Below are positions 2,952 to 55,495 of a DNA stretch of 62,486 bases, piece by piece. A program made the translations under genes and the position numbers. The first letter of the stretch is position 1, and each line of letters opens with the position of its first letter. The DNA is from Planctomycetota bacterium. GTDB lineage: Bacteria; Planctomycetota; Planctomycetia; Pirellulales; Pirellulaceae. Location of the stretch: positions 1 to 62,486 of the forward strand of contig JAEZAS010000509.1 of the NCBI GenBank assembly GCA_023430365.1. The letters are read 5' to 3'. The notes below the pieces were generated by a model. It had not been told where the DNA came from, did not search any database, and saw only the letters and a list, made by a program, of their open reading frames with translations.

Positions 2952-4082
2952 ATGAGTGAGTGTGCTTCGTCCGGAGGGATCGAATCGCGGCAACTGGCCG
3001 AGTTGCAGCTTTGTTTGGTTTCGGGCGTGGGGCCGCGCACCAGGCAGCAGTTGCTCGAGCACTTCGGCTCGGCGGAGCGGGTGCTTGCGGCTTCGCTCGA
3101 TGAGCTGCGGCAGGTCAGCGGCGTGGGACCGAAGCTGGCGAAGAATATCGCCGCGGCCCGATCATGCGATGCGGCGGCCAAGGAGCTGGAACGCTGCCGG
3201 GCGAGCGGTGTGGCGGTGATGGTGCAGGGAAGCGACGGCTATCCACGGATGCTGGAAGAGATTCCCGATCCGCCGGGCGTTCTGTTCCTGCGGGGTGAGA
3301 TTCAGCCGTGCGACGGTCTGGCGCTGGCGATTGTCGGAACACGCCACGCGACGCCTTATGGCGTTGCCCAGGCGGAGCGGCTCGCCAGTGGTTTGGCGAG
3401 GGCTGGGTACACGATCATCAGCGGACTGGCGCGAGGGATCGATTCGGTTGCCCATCAGGCGGCCCTCGCTGCCGGCGGGCGGACGATCGCGGTGCTCGGC
3501 AGCGGGGTGCTGAACGTCTATCCGCCGGAGAACGACGCCCTGGCGAAGGCAATTGCGAAGAACGGGGCCGTGCTCAGCGAATCGCCTCCGTTGTCGCCGC
3601 CGCTGAGCGGAGCGTTTCCGCAGCGGAACCGGATTGTGACGGGGCTGAGCCTGGGCGTGATCGTGGTCGAGGCCTCGGACCGTTCGGGAGCCCTGATCTC
3701 GGCCCGGCATGCGTCGGAGCAGGGGAGGGAAGTTTTTGCGGTCCCCGGTCGGGTCGACAGCCGAACCTCGAAGGGCTGCCACCGTCTTTTGAAGGAGGGG
3801 GCAAAACTAGTCGAGTCGGTCGATGACGTGCTCGAGGAGCTTGGCCCGCTGGTCGATACGATGCAGGAACCGAGCGGGCGAGAGATTCGTCACCCCGCCG
3901 AGCTGCAACTGAACGAGCAGGAGCGGGCGGTGCTGGAGGCGATCGAAATGGAGCCGACCGGCATCGACCAGGTGGTCGTGGCCAGTCAGCTTGCGGTTTC
4001 GCGCGTTTTGTCGACGCTGAGCGCCCTGGAAGTGCGACGGTTGATCCGCAGAGTGAGCGGGAACCGGGTGGTGAGGGTGTAA
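2952..4082 (+). CDS. dprA: DNA-processing protein DprA (Smf)
   Basis: Rossmann-fold signature LAIVGTRHATPYGVAQAERLASGLARAGYTIISGLARGIDSVAHQAAL, an N-terminal helix-hairpin-helix/SAM-like region and a C-terminal winged-helix-like tail. The start is taken at the ATG at 2952; the upstream ORF part belongs to repeat B. Confidence 0.85.
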   Translation: MSECASSGGIESRQLAELQLCLVSGVGPRTRQQLLEHFGSAERVLAASLDELRQVSGVGPKLAKNIAAARSCDAAAKELERCRASGVAVMVQGSDGYPRMLEEIPDPPGVLFLRGEIQPCDGLALAIVGTRHATPYGVAQAERLASGLARAGYTIISGLARGIDSVAHQAALAAGGRTIAVLGSGVLNVYPPENDALAKAIAKNGAVLSESPPLSPPLSGAFPQRNRIVTGLSLGVIVVEASDRSGALISARHASEQGREVFAVPGRVDSRTSKGCHRLLKEGAKLVESVDDVLEELGPLVDTMQEPSGREIRHPAELQLNEQERAVLEAIEMEPTGIDQVVVASQLAVSRVLSTLSALEVRRLIRRVSGNRVVRV

Positions 4083-4092
4083 TAGGTAGTGG

Positions 4093-4118
4093 TCAGTTTT
4101 CAGTATTCAGTTTTCAGT
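4093..4118. repeat. TCAGTTTTCAGT tandem motif (family e)
   Basis: GGTCAGTTTTCAGTATTCAGTTTTCAGTGG directly after the dprA stop. The same motif is arrayed after cysK (55330..55495). Confidence 0.5.
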
Positions 4119-6599: not shown

Positions 6600-7478
6600 C
6601 TACTCGGCGCCGGCGGTGACCTGGGTCACGTCGGAGGCGTCGAGCGTCAACTGCATGCCGTTGTAGGCGCTCCCCGCGCGGTGGCTGGCGTGCCAGAGGG
6701 TTTCCATCTCGGCGAGGCCGTTGATGTGGTACACATCGCGGAGGGCTTTGTCGTAGCCGTGCTCCATCGCCCGCTGCACGAACGTGACAAACCGCGAGGG
6801 ATCGTCCCGGCGGGCGAGGAAGCTGACCAGCGAGGCACTCTGACCATAGAAAGCGGGAATGCGTTCGCGAGACGGATAATCGTCGAGCGTCAGCAGCTCC
6901 GCACAGCGGAAGGCGGAGCGGCGTTCGAGGCTGACGATCAGATCGCGCTGATGAAGCTGCTGCTTGGTTTCGTCATCGGCGAGGATGGCCACGCCTTCGT
7001 CGATCCAGCGGGGCGGCTGCCGGCCCTTGAACAGGTCGGCGAAGATCACATGAGTCATCTCGTGGGCCAAGGCCGAGAGGGGCTCTCCGGTTTGGCCCAA
7101 GAGATCGATCCGGCGAAGCGTCACGCGGGCGCCGGAGAACTCGATCGAGCAGGTTCCCAGCGTCTGCACCGCGCCCGTCCCGACGGCAGCCAGGTAATCC
7201 CGGCGAGTGGCGTGGATCACGATTCGACAGCGAGGTTCCCAGGCCGAAGTTTTGGAGCTGCCGCACCAGAACGAGTGCAATCGCTCGCGCCAGCGTTCGC
7301 AATGGACCGCCACATCGCGGGCGTCATGCGCCGAGCAGTTGCTGAACACGGCGAAATTGGTCGATCCGGCGACCCGGGCATCACCAGCAACAGCGGGAGC
7401 GGGCGAAGCAGCGTCTGCACGGGTAGTGCTCGACGTTGCACCGGCAACGACGAGCAATAGAGCGGTCGTCATCCACAC
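6600..7478 (-). CDS. Secreted HExxH zincin-like protein (second paralogous type)
   Basis: Signal peptide MWMTTALLLVVAGATSSTTRADA; ALAHEMTHVIFADL (HExxH) with a downstream WIDEGVA. The reverse strand is chosen over the overlapping + ORF, which lacks motifs. Confidence 0.55.
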   Translation of the reverse strand: MWMTTALLLVVAGATSSTTRADAASPAPAVAGDARVAGSTNFAVFSNCSAHDARDVAVHCERWRERLHSFWCGSSKTSAWEPRCRIVIHATRRDYLAAVGTGAVQTLGTCSIEFSGARVTLRRIDLLGQTGEPLSALAHEMTHVIFADLFKGRQPPRWIDEGVAILADDETKQQLHQRDLIVSLERRSAFRCAELLTLDDYPSRERIPAFYGQSASLVSFLARRDDPSRFVTFVQRAMEHGYDKALRDVYHINGLAEMETLWHASHRAGSAYNGMQLTLDASDVTQVTAGAE

Positions 7479-7893: not shown

Positions 7894-8346
7894 ATGAAGG
7901 CGGGATGGAAAATCGCGCTCGCGATCTTAGTTGCGGCGGCGGGCATGCCACTGGCGGCTAGTGCGGGCCACGGGCGTCATCACCACGGTGGCGGATATGG
8001 GTATGGAGGCGGGTACGGGGGCAACTGCAGTTGTGGCGTGCAGGTGCAGTACGCGCCGCCGGCTCACGCACAGTACGGCGAACCCACTCCAGCCGTGGCG
8101 CAAACGGGAACCGGCTACCGTTCGTTCTCCTATAGCCCGACTCCGACCGAAGGAGTTCAGCAAGCTGCGGCCGTCGCTTCGACCCCGGCGATGATTGCCC
8201 CAAGCTATTACCCAGCCTATGCGGGCTACGGCGCGGGTTACTACGGCGGCGGGTATTCCTACGGCTCGAATTGGGGTGCCCGGGTTTATAACAACGTGTC
8301 GAACAAGACACTTGGCCGCCACGACTATGGCCTGGGCCGTCGCTAG
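7894..8346 (+). CDS. Secreted Gly/Tyr-rich low-complexity protein
   Basis: Signal peptide MKAGWKIALAILVAAAGMPLAASA, then HHHGGGYGYGGGYGG and GYGAGYYGGGYSYG repeats. GTGAGGTGA lies 4 nt before the ATG; a terminator lies downstream. Confidence 0.5.
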   Translation: MKAGWKIALAILVAAAGMPLAASAGHGRHHHGGGYGYGGGYGGNCSCGVQVQYAPPAHAQYGEPTPAVAQTGTGYRSFSYSPTPTEGVQQAAAVASTPAMIAPSYYPAYAGYGAGYYGGGYSYGSNWGARVYNNVSNKTLGRHDYGLGRR

Positions 8347-18876: not shown

Positions 18877-18990
18877 GCGTAGGGTAGGCTTCCAGCCTGC
18901 CCGCGCAGAGAATGACGAATGCTTCAATGACGAATGACCAATGAGGTAACTTGCTTCATTGGTCATTCGGGCTTCGTCATTCGTCATTTT
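18877..18990. repeat. Composite repeat: hairpin family f (CGTAGGGTAGGCTTCCAGCCTGCCCGC) plus family b (AATGACGAATGACCAATGA inverted pair)
   Basis: f: GGGTAGGC-ttcca-GCCTGCCC. b: AATGACGAATGACCAATGAGG ... TTCATTGGTCATTCGGGCTTCGTCATTCGTCATT. Related copies lie at 23950, 24793 and 53736..53843. Confidence 0.65.
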
Positions 18991-24798: not shown

Positions 24799-24876
24799 CG
24801 AGTGACCAAATCCGAATTATCAATCAGGTCGCCGAAGTATCCATTGGTCATTCGTGCTTCGTCATTCGTCATTTCG
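24793..24876. repeat. Family b inverted-repeat element, copy 2
   Basis: GAATGACGAGTGACCAAAT ...spacer... TCCATTGGTCATTCGTGCTTCGTCATTCGTCATTTC, between the ECF sigma gene and the AIM24-like gene. Confidence 0.6.
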
Positions 24877-30524: not shown

Positions 30525-31040
30525 TTACTGCACGCTCTCGCGGCGCATCACCGTGGAGGCAGTAAGGGTTTTCCCTCCTAAAAACATTGGCGATGGAAGC
30601 CAGCTGACTTGATTAAAAGGAACGGAGACCGTCACGCTCACCGGGTCGCCGAAGGCGGCATTGCTGGGCGGATTTGGACTAACCGTTATCGTCGCACCCT
30701 TGATGGCCCCACTCGTCAGGTAGCTGTTTACGGCATTGCGCACTTCGTTGGTCGTGGCGCCGTCGAGAACCGCCTGCCGAGCCCCCTCGCGGGAGGCGTT
30801 GGTGATGACTTGCTGCACCATCACCATTCGGCCGAACTCGATCATTCCGAACACGAGCAGGAAGAACACCGGGACCACGACCGCAAACTCTACGGTGGCA
30901 GCGCCCAGACGGAATCTTCGGAACGACCGGCAAGGTCGCTCCACCTTCCGCCCCGCATGCGGAACACCTTCGCCAGAATGCCCAGATGGCCGCTCAGCGA
31001 TAATGGTGCGCGAACCCGTCGTGGTATCGAATCGGCTCAT
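30525..31040 (-). CDS. TadE-like pilus assembly protein (pseudopilin-like)
   Basis: TadE motif AATVEFAVVVPVFFLLVFGMIEFGRMVMVQQVITNASREGAR. Start ATG at 31040 overlaps the cpaA stop (ATGA). Confidence 0.6.
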   Translation of the reverse strand: MSRFDTTTGSRTIIAERPSGHSGEGVPHAGRKVERPCRSFRRFRLGAATVEFAVVVPVFFLLVFGMIEFGRMVMVQQVITNASREGARQAVLDGATTNEVRNAVNSYLTSGAIKGATITVSPNPPSNAAFGDPVSVTVSVPFNQVSWLPSPMFLGGKTLTASTVMRRESVQ

Positions 31041-31606
31041 ACCAGCTTCCCCATCCAGATGAAGTAACCAATGGTGCCCATCGCGATCGGAATGCCGTAA
31101 GGCAGGAGCAGCATCGAGCTTTTCCGCTGGGCGGCGATCGTTGCTAGCTGCTCGGGATTTTTGATGACCATGATCTCGTTCAAGATCAGCCAGAACTGTT
31201 CGGTGTGCTTCTTCATCGAGCGACGGTAGAGCACCATGGCGACCGCTAGCACCGCGCCGATGACGGCGGTCCAAGCGAAGGCGTACGTGGTGTCCATCAC
31301 CCAGACCCAGGCGCCGACGCCGGCGAGCAGCTTCACGTCGCCGGCTCCCATGCCGCCGATCGCGTAGGCCGGCATCAGCAGAGCCAGGCCGACGATCGTG
31401 CCCAGCAGGCTCCAGCCGAGACCTTCGAGGCCGAAGGCGGCGAAGCTGTAGACCCAGCCGCTCATGATGAACGGAAACGTGATCCAGTTCGGAACCTTCA
31501 GTTCAAATCCGTCGATCACTGCCGCGACGATCAAGGTGATAGTCACCAGCCAGATCGGCCAGTTCTCAACAATGGCAGTGCCGAAAGCGGCAGCAAGATC
31601 GAACAT
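31037..31606 (-). CDS. cpaA: A24-family prepilin peptidase CpaA/TadV
   Basis: ATG at 31606 preceded by GGAGAG. 5-6 TM helices with conserved Asp in AAVIDGFELKVPN and GGMGAGDVKLLAGVGAW. Confidence 0.75.
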   Translation of the reverse strand: MFDLAAAFGTAIVENWPIWLVTITLIVAAVIDGFELKVPNWITFPFIMSGWVYSFAAFGLEGLGWSLLGTIVGLALLMPAYAIGGMGAGDVKLLAGVGAWVWVMDTTYAFAWTAVIGAVLAVAMVLYRRSMKKHTEQFWLILNEIMVIKNPEQLATIAAQRKSSMLLLPYGIPIAMGTIGYFIWMGKLV

Positions 31607-31898
31607 CGGAACTCTCTCCCCGTTTAAAACCTTTCGCCCTGGCGGCCGGCGATCATGCCGGCCAGGTCTTAGCGCAGTGCGAACAAATAGCTCAGTAATG
31701 CAACGACCATCGTGCAACCGTAGCACACCATTTCCCACCCGCCCGCAAGCGAGTCGATTGGCAGCGCTGTGTACATCTGTGGTCAGCTCCAGCGAACGTT
31801 CATGGGATCGAGAAAGCGGCCTTAGCGCCGGCACGGGGCCGACCGCTCGCGCACCTTCTACGCAAGACTAGGTCACGTTTTTGCGCGCGGCCTGCAAC

Positions 31899-32049
31899 TC
31901 TCCGTCCCAGGCTCCCGCCTGGGAGGGAACTAGCCGGTGGCTCAGCCTCCGAGCACCGCGAGGACGGATTGCAGCGGATGCTCCGCTCGCAGGGCGGGCG
32001 AGGCGGAGCCTCGCGTTAGTTTCGTCCAAGGCTGGAGCCTGGGACGGAG
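31899..32049. mobile_element. MITE-like element (family c), copy 1, about 150 bp with 25-bp terminal inverted repeats
   Basis: Left end CTCCGTCCCAGGCTCCCGCCTGGGA, right end TCCAAGGCTGGAGCCTGGGACGGAG; internal GCGAGGCGGAGCCTCGC hairpin. Confidence 0.6.
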
Positions 32050-32208
32050 CGGTAGAAGCAGCAATTGCCGGTTTCTTGCGGTCCGCGCAGCGATGCCCCC
32101 TCGACAAATGCAGCCGGTCGGCTGAAATCGGTCGAGGGGAGCATGGATGTCAATCGCCAGCCGCAGCCATCAGGCATACGGCTGGCGAAATGTCGACGTC
32201 GCGAGCGA

Positions 32209-32388
32209 CTAGGCGCCTGGCAGCTTCTTGGCGACGCTGTCGAACGTAATGTTCGCGTTCGTGCCGATGGCCTGAATGGCCGTCAAGCAGACGATCACGA
32301 TGAGGGCCAGCATCACGGCGTATTCCACCGCGGTCGGGCCATCTTCAGAAGCCAGGAAACGTTGCACTTTCGAAGCGAAGCTCTTCAT
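32209..32388 (-). CDS. flp: Flp/Fap-family pilin
   Basis: ATG at 32388 with GGAGGAG upstream. MKSFASKVQRFLASEDGPTAVEYAVMLALIVIVCLTAIQAIG is the Flp prepilin motif (G/XXXXEY) plus a hydrophobic helix. Confidence 0.75.
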   Translation of the reverse strand: MKSFASKVQRFLASEDGPTAVEYAVMLALIVIVCLTAIQAIGTNANITFDSVAKKLPGA

Positions 32389-32985
32389 GTTTACTCCTCC
32401 AGTCGTGCCTGCTGCCGCGTGTGCAGCAGACAGTAGCCGACCAAACAAAGGACCGACCGAGTCATAGTCCGCCGCTGACGGTTGGTTCCGTCGGCCTGCC
32501 TTGCGAAGGACCGCGACTCAACTAGGTAATAGCTCGCCTCGCCATCGTCTTCCCGTGTGCAGGTAACCGCGAATCCACCGGAGCGGATTCAGCGGAACAC
32601 CCCTTCGGTAGCTCGGCTTCCGACATGAACCTCGCAGCTCATGGCGGCCCGTGGCTTTGCGCACTCGGCATTGCTGCCGGTTTGCCCTTATCGGGGATGT
32701 GAGGCGGCAGGCCATCACAGGATCCGTCAGCCACATTCCGGCGAAGCAGCTAGTGCTTCGTGTTTTCCGGAGGCGGCTGACGCTCCCACGGTCAGCGTCA
32801 CTTCGATGTCTAAGCACCGCAGTGAACCCTGACACCGCAAACCTAGGTCAACTTTGCCGGGTGTCAAATTTGGGGCTTTAGGGAATTCAGAAGATTCTTT
32901 GCGGTTTTTCGCCCGCGCATCTCATGCAGCAGCGGAGCAACCGGCAGAATCGTTAGAAGCAGGCCCCGGGGGGCGTTCCCAACGT

Positions 32986-33144
32986 CCGAATCTCCGTCCC
33001 CGGCTGCCCGCCTGGGACGAAATGGACGCGAGGCTCCTGCCTCGCCAGGCCCGATAGCTGGGCTTTGCGTGGCAGCCCGCCTTTGCGGGGCTCGGAGGCG
33101 GAGCCTCCGGTTGATTTCGTCCCAGGCTGGAGCCTGGGACGGAG
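32986..33144. mobile_element. MITE-like element (family c), copy 2
   Basis: CTCCGTCCCCGGCTGCCCGCCTGGGA ... GGAGGCGGAGCCTCC ... TCCCAGGCTGGAGCCTGGGACGGAG, in the same orientation and architecture as copy 1. Confidence 0.6.
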
Positions 33145-33271
33145 GATTTCTGGATCAGGGGCCGAAGTCCGGCCAAGACGCTCAACCCTAGCTTCGCACA
33201 GGCGTGGGCTGGCTGTTAGCGCAAAAGAAAACCCACCGCTTGCAGCAGTGGGCAATCGATTCTTCCAGAAG

Positions 33272-33355
33272 TGCGGGTGAGAGGACTTGAACCTCCACGA
33301 CCTTGCGGCCACAAGAACCTGAATCTTGCGCGTCTGCCAATTCCGCCACACCCGC
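33272..33355 (-). tRNA. tRNA-Leu (anticodon CAG)
   Basis: Reverse complement reads GCGGGTG-TG-GCGGAATTGGCAGACGC-G-CAAGA-TTCAGGT-TCTTG-TGGCCGCAAGGTCGTG-GAGGTTCAAGTCCTC-TCACCCGC-A: 7-bp acceptor stem, D-arm, CAG anticodon loop, long variable arm typical of Leu, T-arm GGTTCAAGTCC. Confidence 0.85.
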
Positions 33356-33511
33356 GTGTGCCAGGCAGCCGTGAAACTGCCTAGAGTTCCATTTATAGGC
33401 CAAACTCCCGGTAACGGGCAAGGGGACCCGGGGAGGGGGAATTCAGATTTCAGATTTAGGATTTCTGATTTGGGACGCGGCCGATTCTGGATCCGCTTTC
33501 CGAATTCCGCC

Positions 33512-33853
33512 TTAATACCGCGGTACGGCCGGGTCGATTTCCTGCGACCAGGCGTCGATGCCGCCGGTCATGTTTTGGACCTGGGTGAAGCCCTGTTGCT
33601 GGAGCCAGGCCTGGACTCGGGCGCTGCGGCCCCCGTGGTGGCAATGAACGACGATCCGCTCGTTCTTGTGCGGTTCGAGTTCCTGGAGGCGGGTGGGAAT
33701 TTGCTGCATCGGGATGCGGACGGTTCCGTCGATCGCCGCGGTGGCGATTTCGCCCGGCTCGCGCACGTCGAGCAGCACGAACTTCTCTCCCTGATCTTGC
33801 AGTTGCTTGACGCCTTTGACGTCGATTTCGGCAGGCAATGGCTGGTTGGTCAT
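33512..33853 (-). CDS. Rhodanese-domain sulfurtransferase
   Basis: Single rhodanese domain with active-site loop VVHCHHGGRSARVQAWLQQQGF (CxxGxR). Confidence 0.8.
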   Translation of the reverse strand: MTNQPLPAEIDVKGVKQLQDQGEKFVLLDVREPGEIATAAIDGTVRIPMQQIPTRLQELEPHKNERIVVHCHHGGRSARVQAWLQQQGFTQVQNMTGGIDAWSQEIDPAVPRY

Positions 33854-33941
33854 GGTCTGGATTGTTTTGGTTGAAGTTGTCTCGGAGTCGGCGCCCGGCG
33901 GGTTCGCAGCCCAATGGCTGTCAGCAACGCGTGCCGCTGGC

Positions 33942-34598
33942 TTACGCCGCCTGGGCCGCTTTCAGCCGCAGGTAGGGGCGCATTTTAAACACTGCCAGGG
34001 CGAACAGGCCGATGAGCGTACCGCGAATCACAAGAGTCACCAGAGCCCCCACCAGGAAGGTGGCCTGCTGTTCGGCATTCAGGGTCCGCGACACGATAAA
34101 CAACTGCCACAGCGCCACGGCGAGGCTGAATAGCGACGAAATAAGCGTCAGAAAGCCGAGGACGACGCCCCAACGCCGTTGCCTCAGCATGCCGATGTTG
34201 CCCGCAATGCCAAAGAGCACAATCGCCGCCCCGGAAAGGATCTCGAACGGGGCCGTCAGAAAAATCGGATTCCCCATGAACTCCGGAGGAATTCGGATCC
34301 AGTTCATCGTGCCGTAAATCACTATGGGGATGCGCAGCACAGCCAGGATCAGGCTGATAATGAACATGACCACGCAGAACGTGGGCATCTTCAGCGTGGT
34401 CTCAGGCAACGGAGCGTACGCCTGCAAGGGAGTGGCGTACGGGTTCAGCGGCGGCAGCGACGAATGGGACATGAGCAAGGCCAGCCATGTGAAATTGGGG
34501 AAAACTGCCGAAACCGAATACTGTTGTGACCGCACGCCGGAAACAACACAACCCACCCGTTGGGGGTATTGTAGGTTTCGAAGCCCAAAAGGCTGCAA
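33942..34598 (-). CDS. Hypothetical polytopic membrane protein
   Basis: 4-5 hydrophobic helices; the start is probably internal (MSHSSLPP... or MPTFCVVMFIISL). Confidence 0.4.
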   Translation of the reverse strand: MQPFGLRNLQYPQRVGCVVSGVRSQQYSVSAVFPNFTWLALLMSHSSLPPLNPYATPLQAYAPLPETTLKMPTFCVVMFIISLILAVLRIPIVIYGTMNWIRIPPEFMGNPIFLTAPFEILSGAAIVLFGIAGNIGMLRQRRWGVVLGFLTLISSLFSLAVALWQLFIVSRTLNAEQQATFLVGALVTLVIRGTLIGLFALAVFKMRPYLRLKAAQAA

Positions 34599-46008: not shown

Positions 46009-46087
46009 ACGCTTATTGTCCGTGCGGGGAGCGGGCGGGTCAACAAAAGAGCGGAGGCGAGCGGGCAGGGTCGCAACATTGCTGCAC

Positions 46088-46176
46088 CGGCGAGCGGGAC
46101 GCGTGAGCGTCCCGGGTGCTCGCGGCGACGAGTGGTTCGCGTTTCACCGGGAGACTTACGTCTCCCGTTCGCCGGA
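46088..46176. repeat. Paired GNRA-hairpin palindromic element, copy C
   Basis: GCGAGCG-[GGGACGC GTGA GCGTCCC]-GGGTGCTCGC ... GTTTCACC-[GGGAGAC TTAC GTCTCCC]-GTTCGCC. Confidence 0.7.
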
Positions 46177-46365
46177 GGCCCAGGCGTTTTTCAGCAAAAC
46201 TCGTCGGCGAAAGTAGTAGGCACACCCCGTGTGCCGTGACTCACACGGACGACGGCAGAGGGCGTGTGCCTACTACTTAGCTGTCGCATGGTGTTATCAT
46301 GGGCGGCCGAGCGGCGAACCGATTTGCCGCGGTTCCTTGTTTGCGTTTCCCGATTGATCCCACCT

Positions 46366-52284: not shown

Positions 52285-52325
52285 TAGTAGGCCGGGTGGC
52301 ATGCCGTCGCGGTACTCCGCGTCGG
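52285..52325. repeat. REP palindrome (5' flank of RAYT)
   Basis: GGGTGGCATGCCGTCGCGGTACTCCGCGTCGGCATGG; imperfect palindrome CATGCCGTCGCG-GTACTC-CGCGTCGGCATG. Confidence 0.7.
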
Positions 52326-52434
52326 CATGGAGCCGGGCTCGCGTGCTACCCGACTCGCCGTCCGGCGTCGTTAGGGGACCGCCCTGGTCACTGCTGCGTG
52401 ACATATTTGCGCCAGTGAAGTAACAATTGCCAGA

Positions 52435-53028
52435 ATGAACGATGGCATCCCCAGGCGGACGAAGCACAAGACTTGTCGGCGGTTCAATGAGCCGGGACAT
52501 GCTCATGCTCTGACGTTCTCCTGCTTTCAAGGACGGCCGTTCCTAAGTAAAGATCGAACGCGGCAGTGGTTCGTGAATTCACTGGACGCGGCACGTAGGC
52601 GACTGGCTTTTGACGTGTGGGCCTATGTCATCATGCCGAATCATTGCCACGTGTTGGTTTGGCCTCGAAGTCCGATCTATTCGATCAGCGAGATCCTGAC
52701 GTCGATTAAGTTGCCCGTCGCTCGTCGCGCGGTGGCTTGGGTGAAACAAAACTCACCCGACAACCTCCAACTCATGCGGGACAACCAGCCGAGCGGCGCC
52801 GCGGTCCATCGATTCTGGCAGCGCGGGGGCGGGTTCGACCAAAACCTGGTCGAGGAGAAGTTGATTTACGCGACGATCGACTACCTTCATTTGAATCCGG
52901 TTCGGCGTGGACTGGTCGAGCGTGCGGAAGACTGGAAATGGTCCTCGGCTGGGTACTTCGCGGGAGCGGCCGATGTTCCTTTGAAACCGGATTCGGGTTC
53001 GCTGCCCACGCCGGTGGATGAAACTTGA
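52435..53028 (+). CDS. REP-associated tyrosine transposase (RAYT; IS200/IS605-like Y1 transposase)
   Basis: HuH motif VIMPNHCHVLVWP, catalytic Tyr region YATIDYLHLNPVRRGLV, N-terminal GHAHALTFSCFQGRPFL; flanked by inverted REP copies. Confidence 0.8.
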   Translation: MNDGIPRRTKHKTCRRFNEPGHAHALTFSCFQGRPFLSKDRTRQWFVNSLDAARRRLAFDVWAYVIMPNHCHVLVWPRSPIYSISEILTSIKLPVARRAVAWVKQNSPDNLQLMRDNQPSGAAVHRFWQRGGGFDQNLVEEKLIYATIDYLHLNPVRRGLVERAEDWKWSSAGYFAGAADVPLKPDSGSLPTPVDET

Positions 53029-53057: not shown

Positions 53058-53100
53058 AATTGCATGCCGACGCGGAGTACCGCGACGGCATGCCACCCGA
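53058..53100. repeat. REP palindrome (3' flank of RAYT, inverted relative to the 5' copy)
   Basis: Reverse complement reads GGTCGGGTGGCATGCCGTCGCGGTACTCCGCGTCGGCATGCAATTC, identical over 36 nt to the upstream copy. Confidence 0.7.
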
Positions 53101-53195
53101 CCAAGGTCCGACGCTCGGTAGCACGCCGTGGGCTCACGCCCACGGCTAATCAATGCCGCCGCTGCGCGGCTTTCCTCTTGCCCTTGGGTGGCGCA

Positions 53196-53678: not shown

Positions 53679-53735
53679 GGGGGTTTTCCAGGGATATGAG
53701 GCGTGGCGGTCTGGATTAGGTCGCGGGGATTTGGA

Positions 53736-53843
53736 AATGACGAATGACGAAGTCCGAATGACCAATGGATTTGGGCAGGGAGGGTTGGTCCGTTTGTCAG
53801 GTGGCGCTTTTTACGGGCAGGCTGGAAGCCTACCCTACGGTGG
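53736..53843. repeat. Composite repeat b plus f, copy 3 (mirror orientation of 18877..18990)
   Basis: AAATGACGAATGACGAAGTCCGAATGACCAATGGA ... GGGCAGGCTGGAAGCCTACCCTACGG. Confidence 0.6.
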
Positions 53844-55316: not shown

Positions 55317-55329
55317 CGCCCGGGCGGTT

Positions 55330-55495
55330 ATCAGTTTTCAGTAGTCAGTTTTCAGTTCTTAGTAGACAGTAGACAGTTCACAGTTGGTCGATTGAACTTT
55401 CTGGCCGCTCGCGGTTGTTTCTGGCCGTGGGCGGTTTTTTGTGCGCGAGGGCAAGCTCGTCTTACTGAGAACTGACTACTGACAGCTGAAAACTC
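55330..55495. repeat. TCAGTTTTCAGT-type arrays forming a long inverted repeat around an internal T-run (family e)
   Basis: Left arm CAGTTTTCAGTAGTCAGTTTTCAGTTCTTAGTAGACAGTAGACAGTTCACAGTTGG; right arm CTGAGAACTGACTACTGACAGCTGAAAACTC (reverse complement of a related array); GGCCGTGGGCGGTTTTTT between. Confidence 0.5.

Follow-up and report, generated by a model that had tools for sequence, protein, structure and literature searches.

The contig JAEZAS010000509.1 of a planctomycete of the family Pirellulaceae (assembly GCA_023430365.1; 62,486 nt, all of which was analyzed and is called the window here) carries a Tad locus in which the flp pilin gene lies between a tRNA-Leu(CAG) gene and a block of assembly genes that begins with cpaA and continues with tadE, cpaB/rcpC, a secretin gene, and tadZ/cpaE (Table 1). 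Two palindromic elements, E1 and E2, bracket flp and its leader of about 550 nt: E1 separates the pilin gene from the cpaA-tadE-cpaB-secretin-tadZ block, and E2 faces the tRNA gene. This layout is the one proposed in a prediction made beforehand from the letters of the window (the original prediction), which had put the tRNA about 130 bp beyond the second element. E1 and E2 are very likely doublets of inverted repetitive extragenic palindromic (REP) modules of the kind known as REP doublets forming hairpins (REPINs), members of a Pirellulaceae family that is linked to a REP-associated tyrosine transposase (RAYT) and would most likely have been copied in trans.

Table 1. Features of the pilin locus and of the RAYT2 locus in the window (strand "." where none applies; names beginning with L are compared loci).
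Feature	Position	Strand	Evidence and remarks
cpaA, prepilin peptidase gene	31037-31606	-	Pfam Peptidase_A24; gene call in L011
35-aa open reading frame between the flp gene(s) and cpaA	31669-31776	-	translation; outside the repeat
flp2 3'-end/stop remnant	31861-31877	-	window CGTGACCTAGTCTTGCG, L103 CGTAACCTAAGCTTGCG; 14/17 identical, collinear
E1, probable REPIN-type REP doublet	31900-32049 (150 nt)	.	repeat search, alignment, fold
E1, left module	31900-31961	-	nhmmer 44 bits; 24-nt spacer to right module
E1, right module	31986-32049	+	nhmmer 57 bits
Hairpin CCCCTCGAC...GTCGAGGGG	32096-32139	-	directly downstream of flp; kept in L103/L104
flp pilin gene (59 aa), flp1 ortholog	32209-32388	-	translation; Pfam Flp_Fap 1.8e-8
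Predicted c-di-GMP-I riboswitch aptamer	32603-32696	-	RF01051, 49.1 bits (gathering score 35), at 32604-32696
E2, probable REPIN-type REP doublet	32992-33144 (153 nt)	.	repeat search, alignment, fold
E2, left module	32992-33055	-	nhmmer 39 bits
E2, right module	33084-33144	+	nhmmer 53 bits
Predicted intrinsic terminator of tRNA-Leu	33231-33253	-	terminator scan; upstream of E2
tRNA-Leu(CAG)	33271-33355	-	ARAGORN, Rfam; 126 nt from E2; kept in L103 and L109
RAYT2, left REP	52290-52329		40-nt inverted pair, GTAG-tagged
RAYT2	52435-53028	+	NCBIfam NF047646, 88.8 bits (cut-off 80)
RAYT2, right REP	53063-53102		partner of the left REP, 98% complementary
Acido-Lenti-1 motif	53126-53171	+	RF01687, 54.7 bits (gathering score 37)

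Two elements of about 150 bp had been predicted close to where E1 and E2 were found, although the start given for the second (32986) fell 6 nt too far to the left. The elements end in CTCCGTCCCAGGC... and ...GCCTGGGACGGAG; a search at up to one mismatch finds the 25-nt terminus at three places in the window and in none of 100 shuffled versions, and the fourth element end, at 32992, is a variant with one indel. The terminal inverted repeats (TIRs) of 25 bp that had been described are thus real insofar as the terminus recurs, but alignment of both strands of both elements showed that E1 and E2 are imperfectly palindromic from end to end, and what had been read as a TIR corresponds to a REP module of about 55 nt with two hairpins. 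As single strands, E1 and E2 each fold into one long hairpin with a minimum free energy of -96 to -115 kcal/mol and z scores of -6.7 to -8.9 (E1: -110/-96 kcal/mol, z -8.3/-6.7; E2: -115/-111 kcal/mol, z about -8.7), and none of 200 shuffled sequences folded as well as either element. Because both elements are palindromic, the orientation of one relative to the other is undefined; they are 75% identical when aligned directly and 78% when one is inverted, so that the shared orientation originally claimed for them cannot be asserted. Both are intergenic and have the form of a REPIN doublet (inverted REPs, a short spacer, and a single hairpin), and a search of Rfam at E<=1 across positions 31000-34500 and five RAYT loci identified no known RNA family over the repeats.

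Each element consists of two inverted copies of a module of about 55-62 nt that itself comprises two hairpins. Read with GGAG at its 3' end, the module runs CGAGGC-NGA-GCCTCG, about 9 nt often containing TAG, CGTCCCAGGC-NGGA-GCCTGGGACG, and GAG. DNA folding returned two hairpins in each of the four half-elements, and an internal hairpin of the GCGAGGCGGAGCCTCGC type, already recognized as common to both elements, is present in all four. Across 97 distinct modules, 96.3% of helix cells are paired, and double-sided changes number 72 where 24 would be expected, a count that none of 500 shuffles reached and that collapsed in slid controls. Compensatory pairs occur at the base of both stems (CG 37/GC 32, CG 76/GC 18, CG 82/GC 10, and GC 89/UA 7), and compensatory changes keep both hairpins of the module. 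Conservation stops exactly at ...GGAG, beyond which there is only a weak target bias (A/T, then T/G).

The module is not confined to this locus. A scan for a 20-base core in one genome per species returned 10 loci, seven of them with a full module, and six of these seven are labeled Pirellulaceae; searching metagenome contigs with the 24-nt terminal hairpin gave 73 loci, about 20 of which come from one sample (contigs <=236 kb). An nhmmer profile gave 168 matches, resolving into 18 inverted doublets and 74 singlets, with up to three copies within 2 kb at one locus (L032). In the doublets, as in E1 and E2, the minus-strand copy precedes the plus-strand copy; eight of the 18 measure 148-153 nt, and their spacers are not conserved. 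The check for target-site duplications suggested with the original prediction was negative, with no direct repeats at the flanks of the 18 doublets (E1, E2, and 16 others). Family copies abut stop codons as well as start codons, in both orientations. The open frame over a module site has a median length of 627 nt, compared with 1233 nt at random positions of the same loci, and 33% of module sites lie inside an open frame of at least 900 nt compared with 71% of random sites, a test that discriminates weakly, as a GC content of 62% yields long spurious frames. Across related genomes and metagenomes the family is thus a dispersed, extragenic repeat of Pirellulaceae.

At two loci, L070 (272-325) and L080 (1471-1528), an identical module is followed by about 35 nt of identical inner flank (AAAGTAGTAGGCTCACTCCGTGTGCCGTCGGTTCAG) downstream of different genes; the explanation would be a mobile unit longer than the module or an assembly that is chimeric at the repeat.

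The link between this family and a transposase was found in related genomes. At locus L037, inverted modules at 7226-7249 (minus strand) and 7895-7918 (plus strand), 650 nt apart, enclose an open reading frame (ORF) of 177 aa whose product matches the NCBIfam equivalog NF047646, "REP-associated tyrosine transposase," with 89.7 bits (cut-off 80); a Pfam search of this protein at a threshold of 0.01 gave no match, Y1_Tnp included. Its homologs at E<=1e-10 number 3296, many of them named RayT by their sources and most lying on single short contigs. The orthologs P0001 (82% identity), P0004, and P0018 are flanked by a left minus-strand and a right plus-strand module as in L037, and P0111 has the left module only, on a contig that ends there. 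Modules flank the gene on both sides at L037, L094/L095, L096-L098, and L099/L100 and on the left side at L101/L102, giving five independent loci, and the module scores drop from 52-55 to 24-30 bits as the RAYT proteins diverge. P0001 is encoded on contigs from the metagenome series that also yielded the window-matching contigs, and at 94% the left REP of P0001 ranks with the sequences most similar to E2's right half. In the aligned RAYTs the HUH (NHxH) and tyrosine (YxHxNP) motifs are invariant; a search of the PDB with the RAYT profile produced one convincing match, 4ER8 (Escherichia coli TnpA-REP; 3e-7), and phmmer of P0001 against the PDB produced none.

The window encodes a RAYT of its own, RAYT2, which was the only match when the L037 protein was searched against it with tblastn. 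RAYT2 is a distant relative (about 23% identity) of the RAYT linked with the E1/E2 family, and the cognate RAYT is therefore not in these 62 kb. The REPs that flank RAYT2 (Table 1) had no further copies in the window or in any of the fetched loci; as its REP differs and is represented by just these two flanking copies, RAYT2 is not the mobilizer of E1 and E2. The cognate gene would instead reside elsewhere in the source genome.

Some neighborhoods of the family-linked RAYT genes are conserved. In L037 (7921-8050) and L094 (731-1531) the RAYT gene lies upstream of the same gene, the products of which begin MAEPFLIDDDDRYSRLRLISWWDQ and MAEPLLIDDDDRYGRLRLIAWWD, and P0004 and P0018 share another arrangement, with DUF6807 upstream and PQQ_2 downstream. 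Shared neighborhoods of this kind would be compatible with RAYT genes that are inherited vertically.

Comparison of the pilin locus itself among relatives dates the two insertions. An identical flp protein is encoded on 11 contigs, ten of which were read. Among these, L011 (23 kb) is 99.9% identical to the window, and L012 is 96.8% identical and carries E2 together with the first 20 nt of E1. Five further contigs of about 1.1 kb start at 33144-33124 and finish at 31997-32044, that is, independent assemblies break inside the repeats. The unitig of the sister lineage L111 (CpaA 96%) begins 22 nt outside E1 and so says nothing about the left half of E1. More distant syntenic loci were located through CpaA homologs: L103 (89%), L107 (81%), L109 (76%), and L110 (74%), the last with a CpaA identical to that of Pirellula staleyi DSM 6068. 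None of these four loci contains a module at E<=1, and all four have the order flp1-flp2-35-aa ORF-cpaA. Since other Pirellulaceae genomes and metagenomes contain the termini too, and since relatives carry the same locus without E1 and E2, we did not find a private repeat in an arrangement that related genomes share uninterrupted.

The pilin gene of the window corresponds to flp1, being 95% identical to flp1 and 80% identical to flp2 of L103. In the intervals compared (31861-32095 of the window and 2458-2945 of L103), homology with L103/L104 continues through the hairpin downstream of flp1, breaks off about 25 nt short of E1, and picks up again 22 nt beyond it in the flp2 stop region, where the flp2 stop codons of the four relatives align. 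E1 thus occupies the position of flp2, given that the flanking homology consists of the flp1 3' hairpin on one side and the flp2 stop region on the other; by this alignment the lineage of the window has evidently lost flp2, of which the stop region alone is left. E2 lies in a poorly conserved spacer that extends from the tRNA-Leu terminator to the conserved promoter and leader block of flp and measures 319 nt in the window compared with 145 nt in L103. E2 is absent from L103 and L109, from which this spacer has diverged too far for the insertion point to be placed at the nucleotide level. Judged by these alignments, the insertions belong to the lineage of the window and a lineage 97-98% identical to it, in which E2 and the first 6-20 nt of E1 are seen, and they are absent from the closest relative found (about 82% DNA identity).

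These observations suggest the following history. A single-copy RAYT of the Y1/HUH type, itself situated between two inverted modules in related genomes, would copy modules in trans; by analogy with IS200/IS605 transposases and E. coli TnpA-REP, it would recognize hairpins in single-stranded DNA and would cut and rejoin them without duplicating the target site. After the split from the relatives with 89% identical CpaA, E2 would have landed between the tRNA-Leu terminator and the flp promoter and riboswitch leader, and another copy, E1, would have replaced the second pilin gene, flp2, in the same lineage. Mobilization of the modules by the RAYT is most likely on the basis of the empty orthologous sites in relatives and of REPs that diverge together with the RAYT, and the breaks of metagenome assemblies at E1 and E2 would fit a repeat present in multiple copies.

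Several points weigh against this account. Those same breaks could equally result from poor coverage of GC-rich hairpins, and the 62-kb window holds just two copies of the module family, E1 and E2. The cognate RAYT was seen in related genomes, and the sole RAYT of the window is flanked by a different REP. No transposition intermediate was seen, nor any insertion polymorphism between very close strains. In the fetched loci singlets outnumber doublets by about 4:1, whereas Pseudomonas REPINs are mostly doublets. The modules keep the GTAG tag expected of REPs only in part: of the 97, 49 have TAG and 18 have GTAG, always 3 nt upstream of the stem, and the corresponding tetranucleotides in the copies of the window are TTAG, CTAG, TTGA, and TCCA.

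Under the published definitions of REP/RAYT systems and REPINs (PMC3116915; PMC5581495), the nearest parallel is with the REPINs of Pseudomonas fluorescens SBW25, which likewise are inverted REP doublets with a poorly conserved spacer that fold into one long hairpin, occur dispersed and extragenic as singlets and doublets without target-site duplications, and have a cognate single-copy RAYT gene flanked by the same REPs (Bertels and Rainey, 2011, PMC3116915). The present family differs in its longer REP unit (about 55-62 nt with two hairpins, compared with about 20-25 nt) and longer doublets (about 150 nt, compared with 71-110 nt), in the predominance of singlets among the sampled loci, and in its planctomycete host; its RAYT, about 23% identical to RAYT2, is not placed in the published groups. 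The E. coli REPs, with their bacterial interspersed mosaic elements and TnpA-REP (4ER8), share an HUH/Y1 enzyme, as judged by sequence, and REPs whose hairpin stem is preceded on its 5' side by a (G)TAG-like motif, but here the tag is degenerate and 3 nt from the stem, and the conserved unit includes a second, upstream hairpin. REP/RAYT systems as such are already known, Pirellulaceae included: for Rhodopirellula baltica, REP families and a [quoted passage not shown] are described (Di Nocera et al., 2013, PMC3733652). Compared by description only, the GTAG-tagged REP families and "REPtrons" of that study are similar in their Pirellulaceae host and in the frequency of head-to-head dimers; where the study describes its CGTC superfamily, the CGTC tag is unpaired, whereas the stem here, of 10-11 bp, starts with a CGTC that is base-paired. 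The Correia elements of Neisseria (Correia repeat enclosed elements or Neisseria miniature insertion sequences, CREE/NEMIS) and other bacterial miniature inverted-repeat transposable elements (MITEs) resemble E1 and E2 in size (about 100-150 nt), TIRs of about 25 nt, intergenic position, and long hairpins, and Correia elements are often co-transcribed with neighboring genes, but they have a TA target-site duplication and no Y1 transposase, in contrast to the lack of duplication and the RAYT between the termini found here.

What the analysis adds is a Pirellulaceae REP/RAYT family whose two-hairpin unit is unusually long, which has cognate RAYT orthologs, and in which REP and RAYT diverge together, in a field where REPIN biology comes almost wholly from Proteobacteria, together with a dated case in which a REP doublet coincides with a lost structural gene, flp2. 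The correct label also prevents annotation of these repeats as spurious genes or as a pilin-switching cassette. With regard to the former, the four ORFs listed over the repeats are very probably artifacts, as had been supposed: they overlap non-coding repeats and, in one case, also the tRNA; no gene is called there in L011, and relatives free of the repeats cannot encode them. Repeats stand at contig ends in several metagenome assemblies, and they probably fragment assemblies at such loci.

An alternative that is unlikely, though the best placed of those considered, and that is compatible with a mobile origin, is that E1 and E2 are structures selected by the host, E1 as an attenuator or 3' stabilizer that sets the ratio of pilin to assembly proteins and E2 as an insulator between the tRNA gene and flp. 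The positions suit such roles, E1 lying between flp and cpaA on the transcribed strand with an RNA fold of -96 kcal/mol and E2 separating the tRNA terminator from the conserved leader block, and roles of this type are generally known for the REPs of E. coli (they are among those listed in PMC3733652). The relatives, however, lack both elements and keep their own conserved hairpin after flp1, copies of the family stand in both orientations at gene starts and gene ends, on the flp strand the hairpins lack a downstream U-tract, and E2 has diverged by about 5% between lineages that are about 3% apart overall, which gives no suggestion of constraint. The hairpin at 32096-32139, which transcription from flp reaches before E1, is flp1's own 3' structure and may serve as a terminator; unless it does, E1 would be co-transcribed with flp, and it could then attenuate read-through into cpaA or protect the 3' end of flp.

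The original prediction had gone further and proposed that the repeats allow loss, inversion, or swapping of the pilin cassette. In a version of this idea that we consider improbable, flp2 was deleted by recombination or RAYT excision between two flanking REP doublets, leaving a hybrid E1, and the riboswitch-flp unit between E1 and E2 is still open to occasional excision or inversion driven by the RAYT or by recombination; if this were true, REPINs would drive copy-number or phase variation of a pilin gene in a planctomycete. The loss of flp2 exactly at E1, which could be the scar of recombination between two earlier copies, is the sole fact that fits a repeat-associated rearrangement. Still harder to sustain, and to our minds very improbable, is the full proposal of a device in which the repeats are recombination substrates for excision, inversion, or replacement of flp, with phase or antigenic variation as the outcome. 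Apart from the loss of flp2, this proposal can point to E1 and E2 bracketing flp and its leader and to the five short contigs that start and finish in repeats. E1 and E2 share no exact match longer than 21 nt in direct or 16 nt in inverted orientation. RecA-dependent recombination needs lengths at or above matches of this size. The half-elements are 94-95% identical to copies in other metagenomes and at most 84% identical to the other halves in the window; with such short matches and closer kin elsewhere, E1 and E2 are independent insertions and poor substrates for homologous recombination. Moreover, the three spanning sequences (the window, L011, and L012) are collinear, and neither inversion nor excision was seen, although rare variants could escape the short contigs. 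The adjacent genes include no recombinase gene, and copies of the family occupy many unrelated sites outside genes, so that the proposed behavior of the cassette is not borne out.

The least credible of these alternatives is that E1 and E2 are classical MITEs, deletion derivatives of a DDE insertion sequence moved by cut-and-paste through 25-bp TIRs with target-site duplication, which would account for terminal inverted repeats, a size of about 150 nt, non-coding content, and a dispersed family, but not for the lack of flanking direct repeats at all 18 doublets, a conserved unit that is a double hairpin of about 55 nt and mostly solitary, or five loci in which the same termini surround a Y1/HUH RAYT and no DDE transposase lies between them. 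The term "MITE-like" holds for a non-autonomous dispersed repeat, and the elements are better classed as REPIN-type because they lack target-site duplications and because a RAYT stands between the same termini. Three other classes, an integron attC site, a CRISPR array, and a family of intrinsic terminators, were also considered and rejected: there is neither an array nor an integrase, copies face either way with respect to genes, and the flp strand has no U-tract after the hairpins.

Other features of the pilin locus lie outside the repeats. The leader of flp contains a predicted cyclic di-GMP (c-di-GMP) riboswitch aptamer of class I (GEMM-I) 215 nt upstream of the flp start codon, which also scores 53.1 bits with the GGC-variant model (gathering score 59; E 6e-11). 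The aptamer occurs upstream of flp1 in L103, L107, L109, L110, and L012 as well, two of these five scoring above the gathering score of the GGC-variant model. Such an aptamer would explain the long leader of flp, and its recurrence suggests that expression of the Flp pilin is controlled by c-di-GMP across the Pirellulaceae. Between the flp gene(s) and cpaA, a 35-aa ORF encodes a hydrophobic product (MYTALPIDSLAGGWEMVCYGCTMVVALLSYLFALR) with counterparts in L103 (2959-3066), L107 (1471-1578), and L109 (2543-2650). It is called as a gene in L011, L103-L105, L107, and L109 and aligns, uncalled, in the P. staleyi locus L110; no Pfam family covers it, and its product could be a small Tad component that has escaped annotation.

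Near RAYT2, an Acido-Lenti-1 motif lies 24 nt past the right-hand REP, and none was found beside the other RAYT loci examined. This motif was first described from Acidobacteria and Lentisphaerae. The window also contains several other palindromic repeat families, among them CCGGCGAGCGGGA..CGT.AG..TCCCGG (897-1011, 2885-2915, and 46074-46189), as well as an AT-richer short repeat, CATTGGTCATTCG.GCTTCGTCATTCGTCATTT (18957-18989, 24839-24875, and 53734-53770). Tandem runs of the heptamers CAGTTTT and CAGATTT are intergenic and occur at 4074-4118, at 33437-33475, just past the tRNA-Leu gene, and at 55326-55384.

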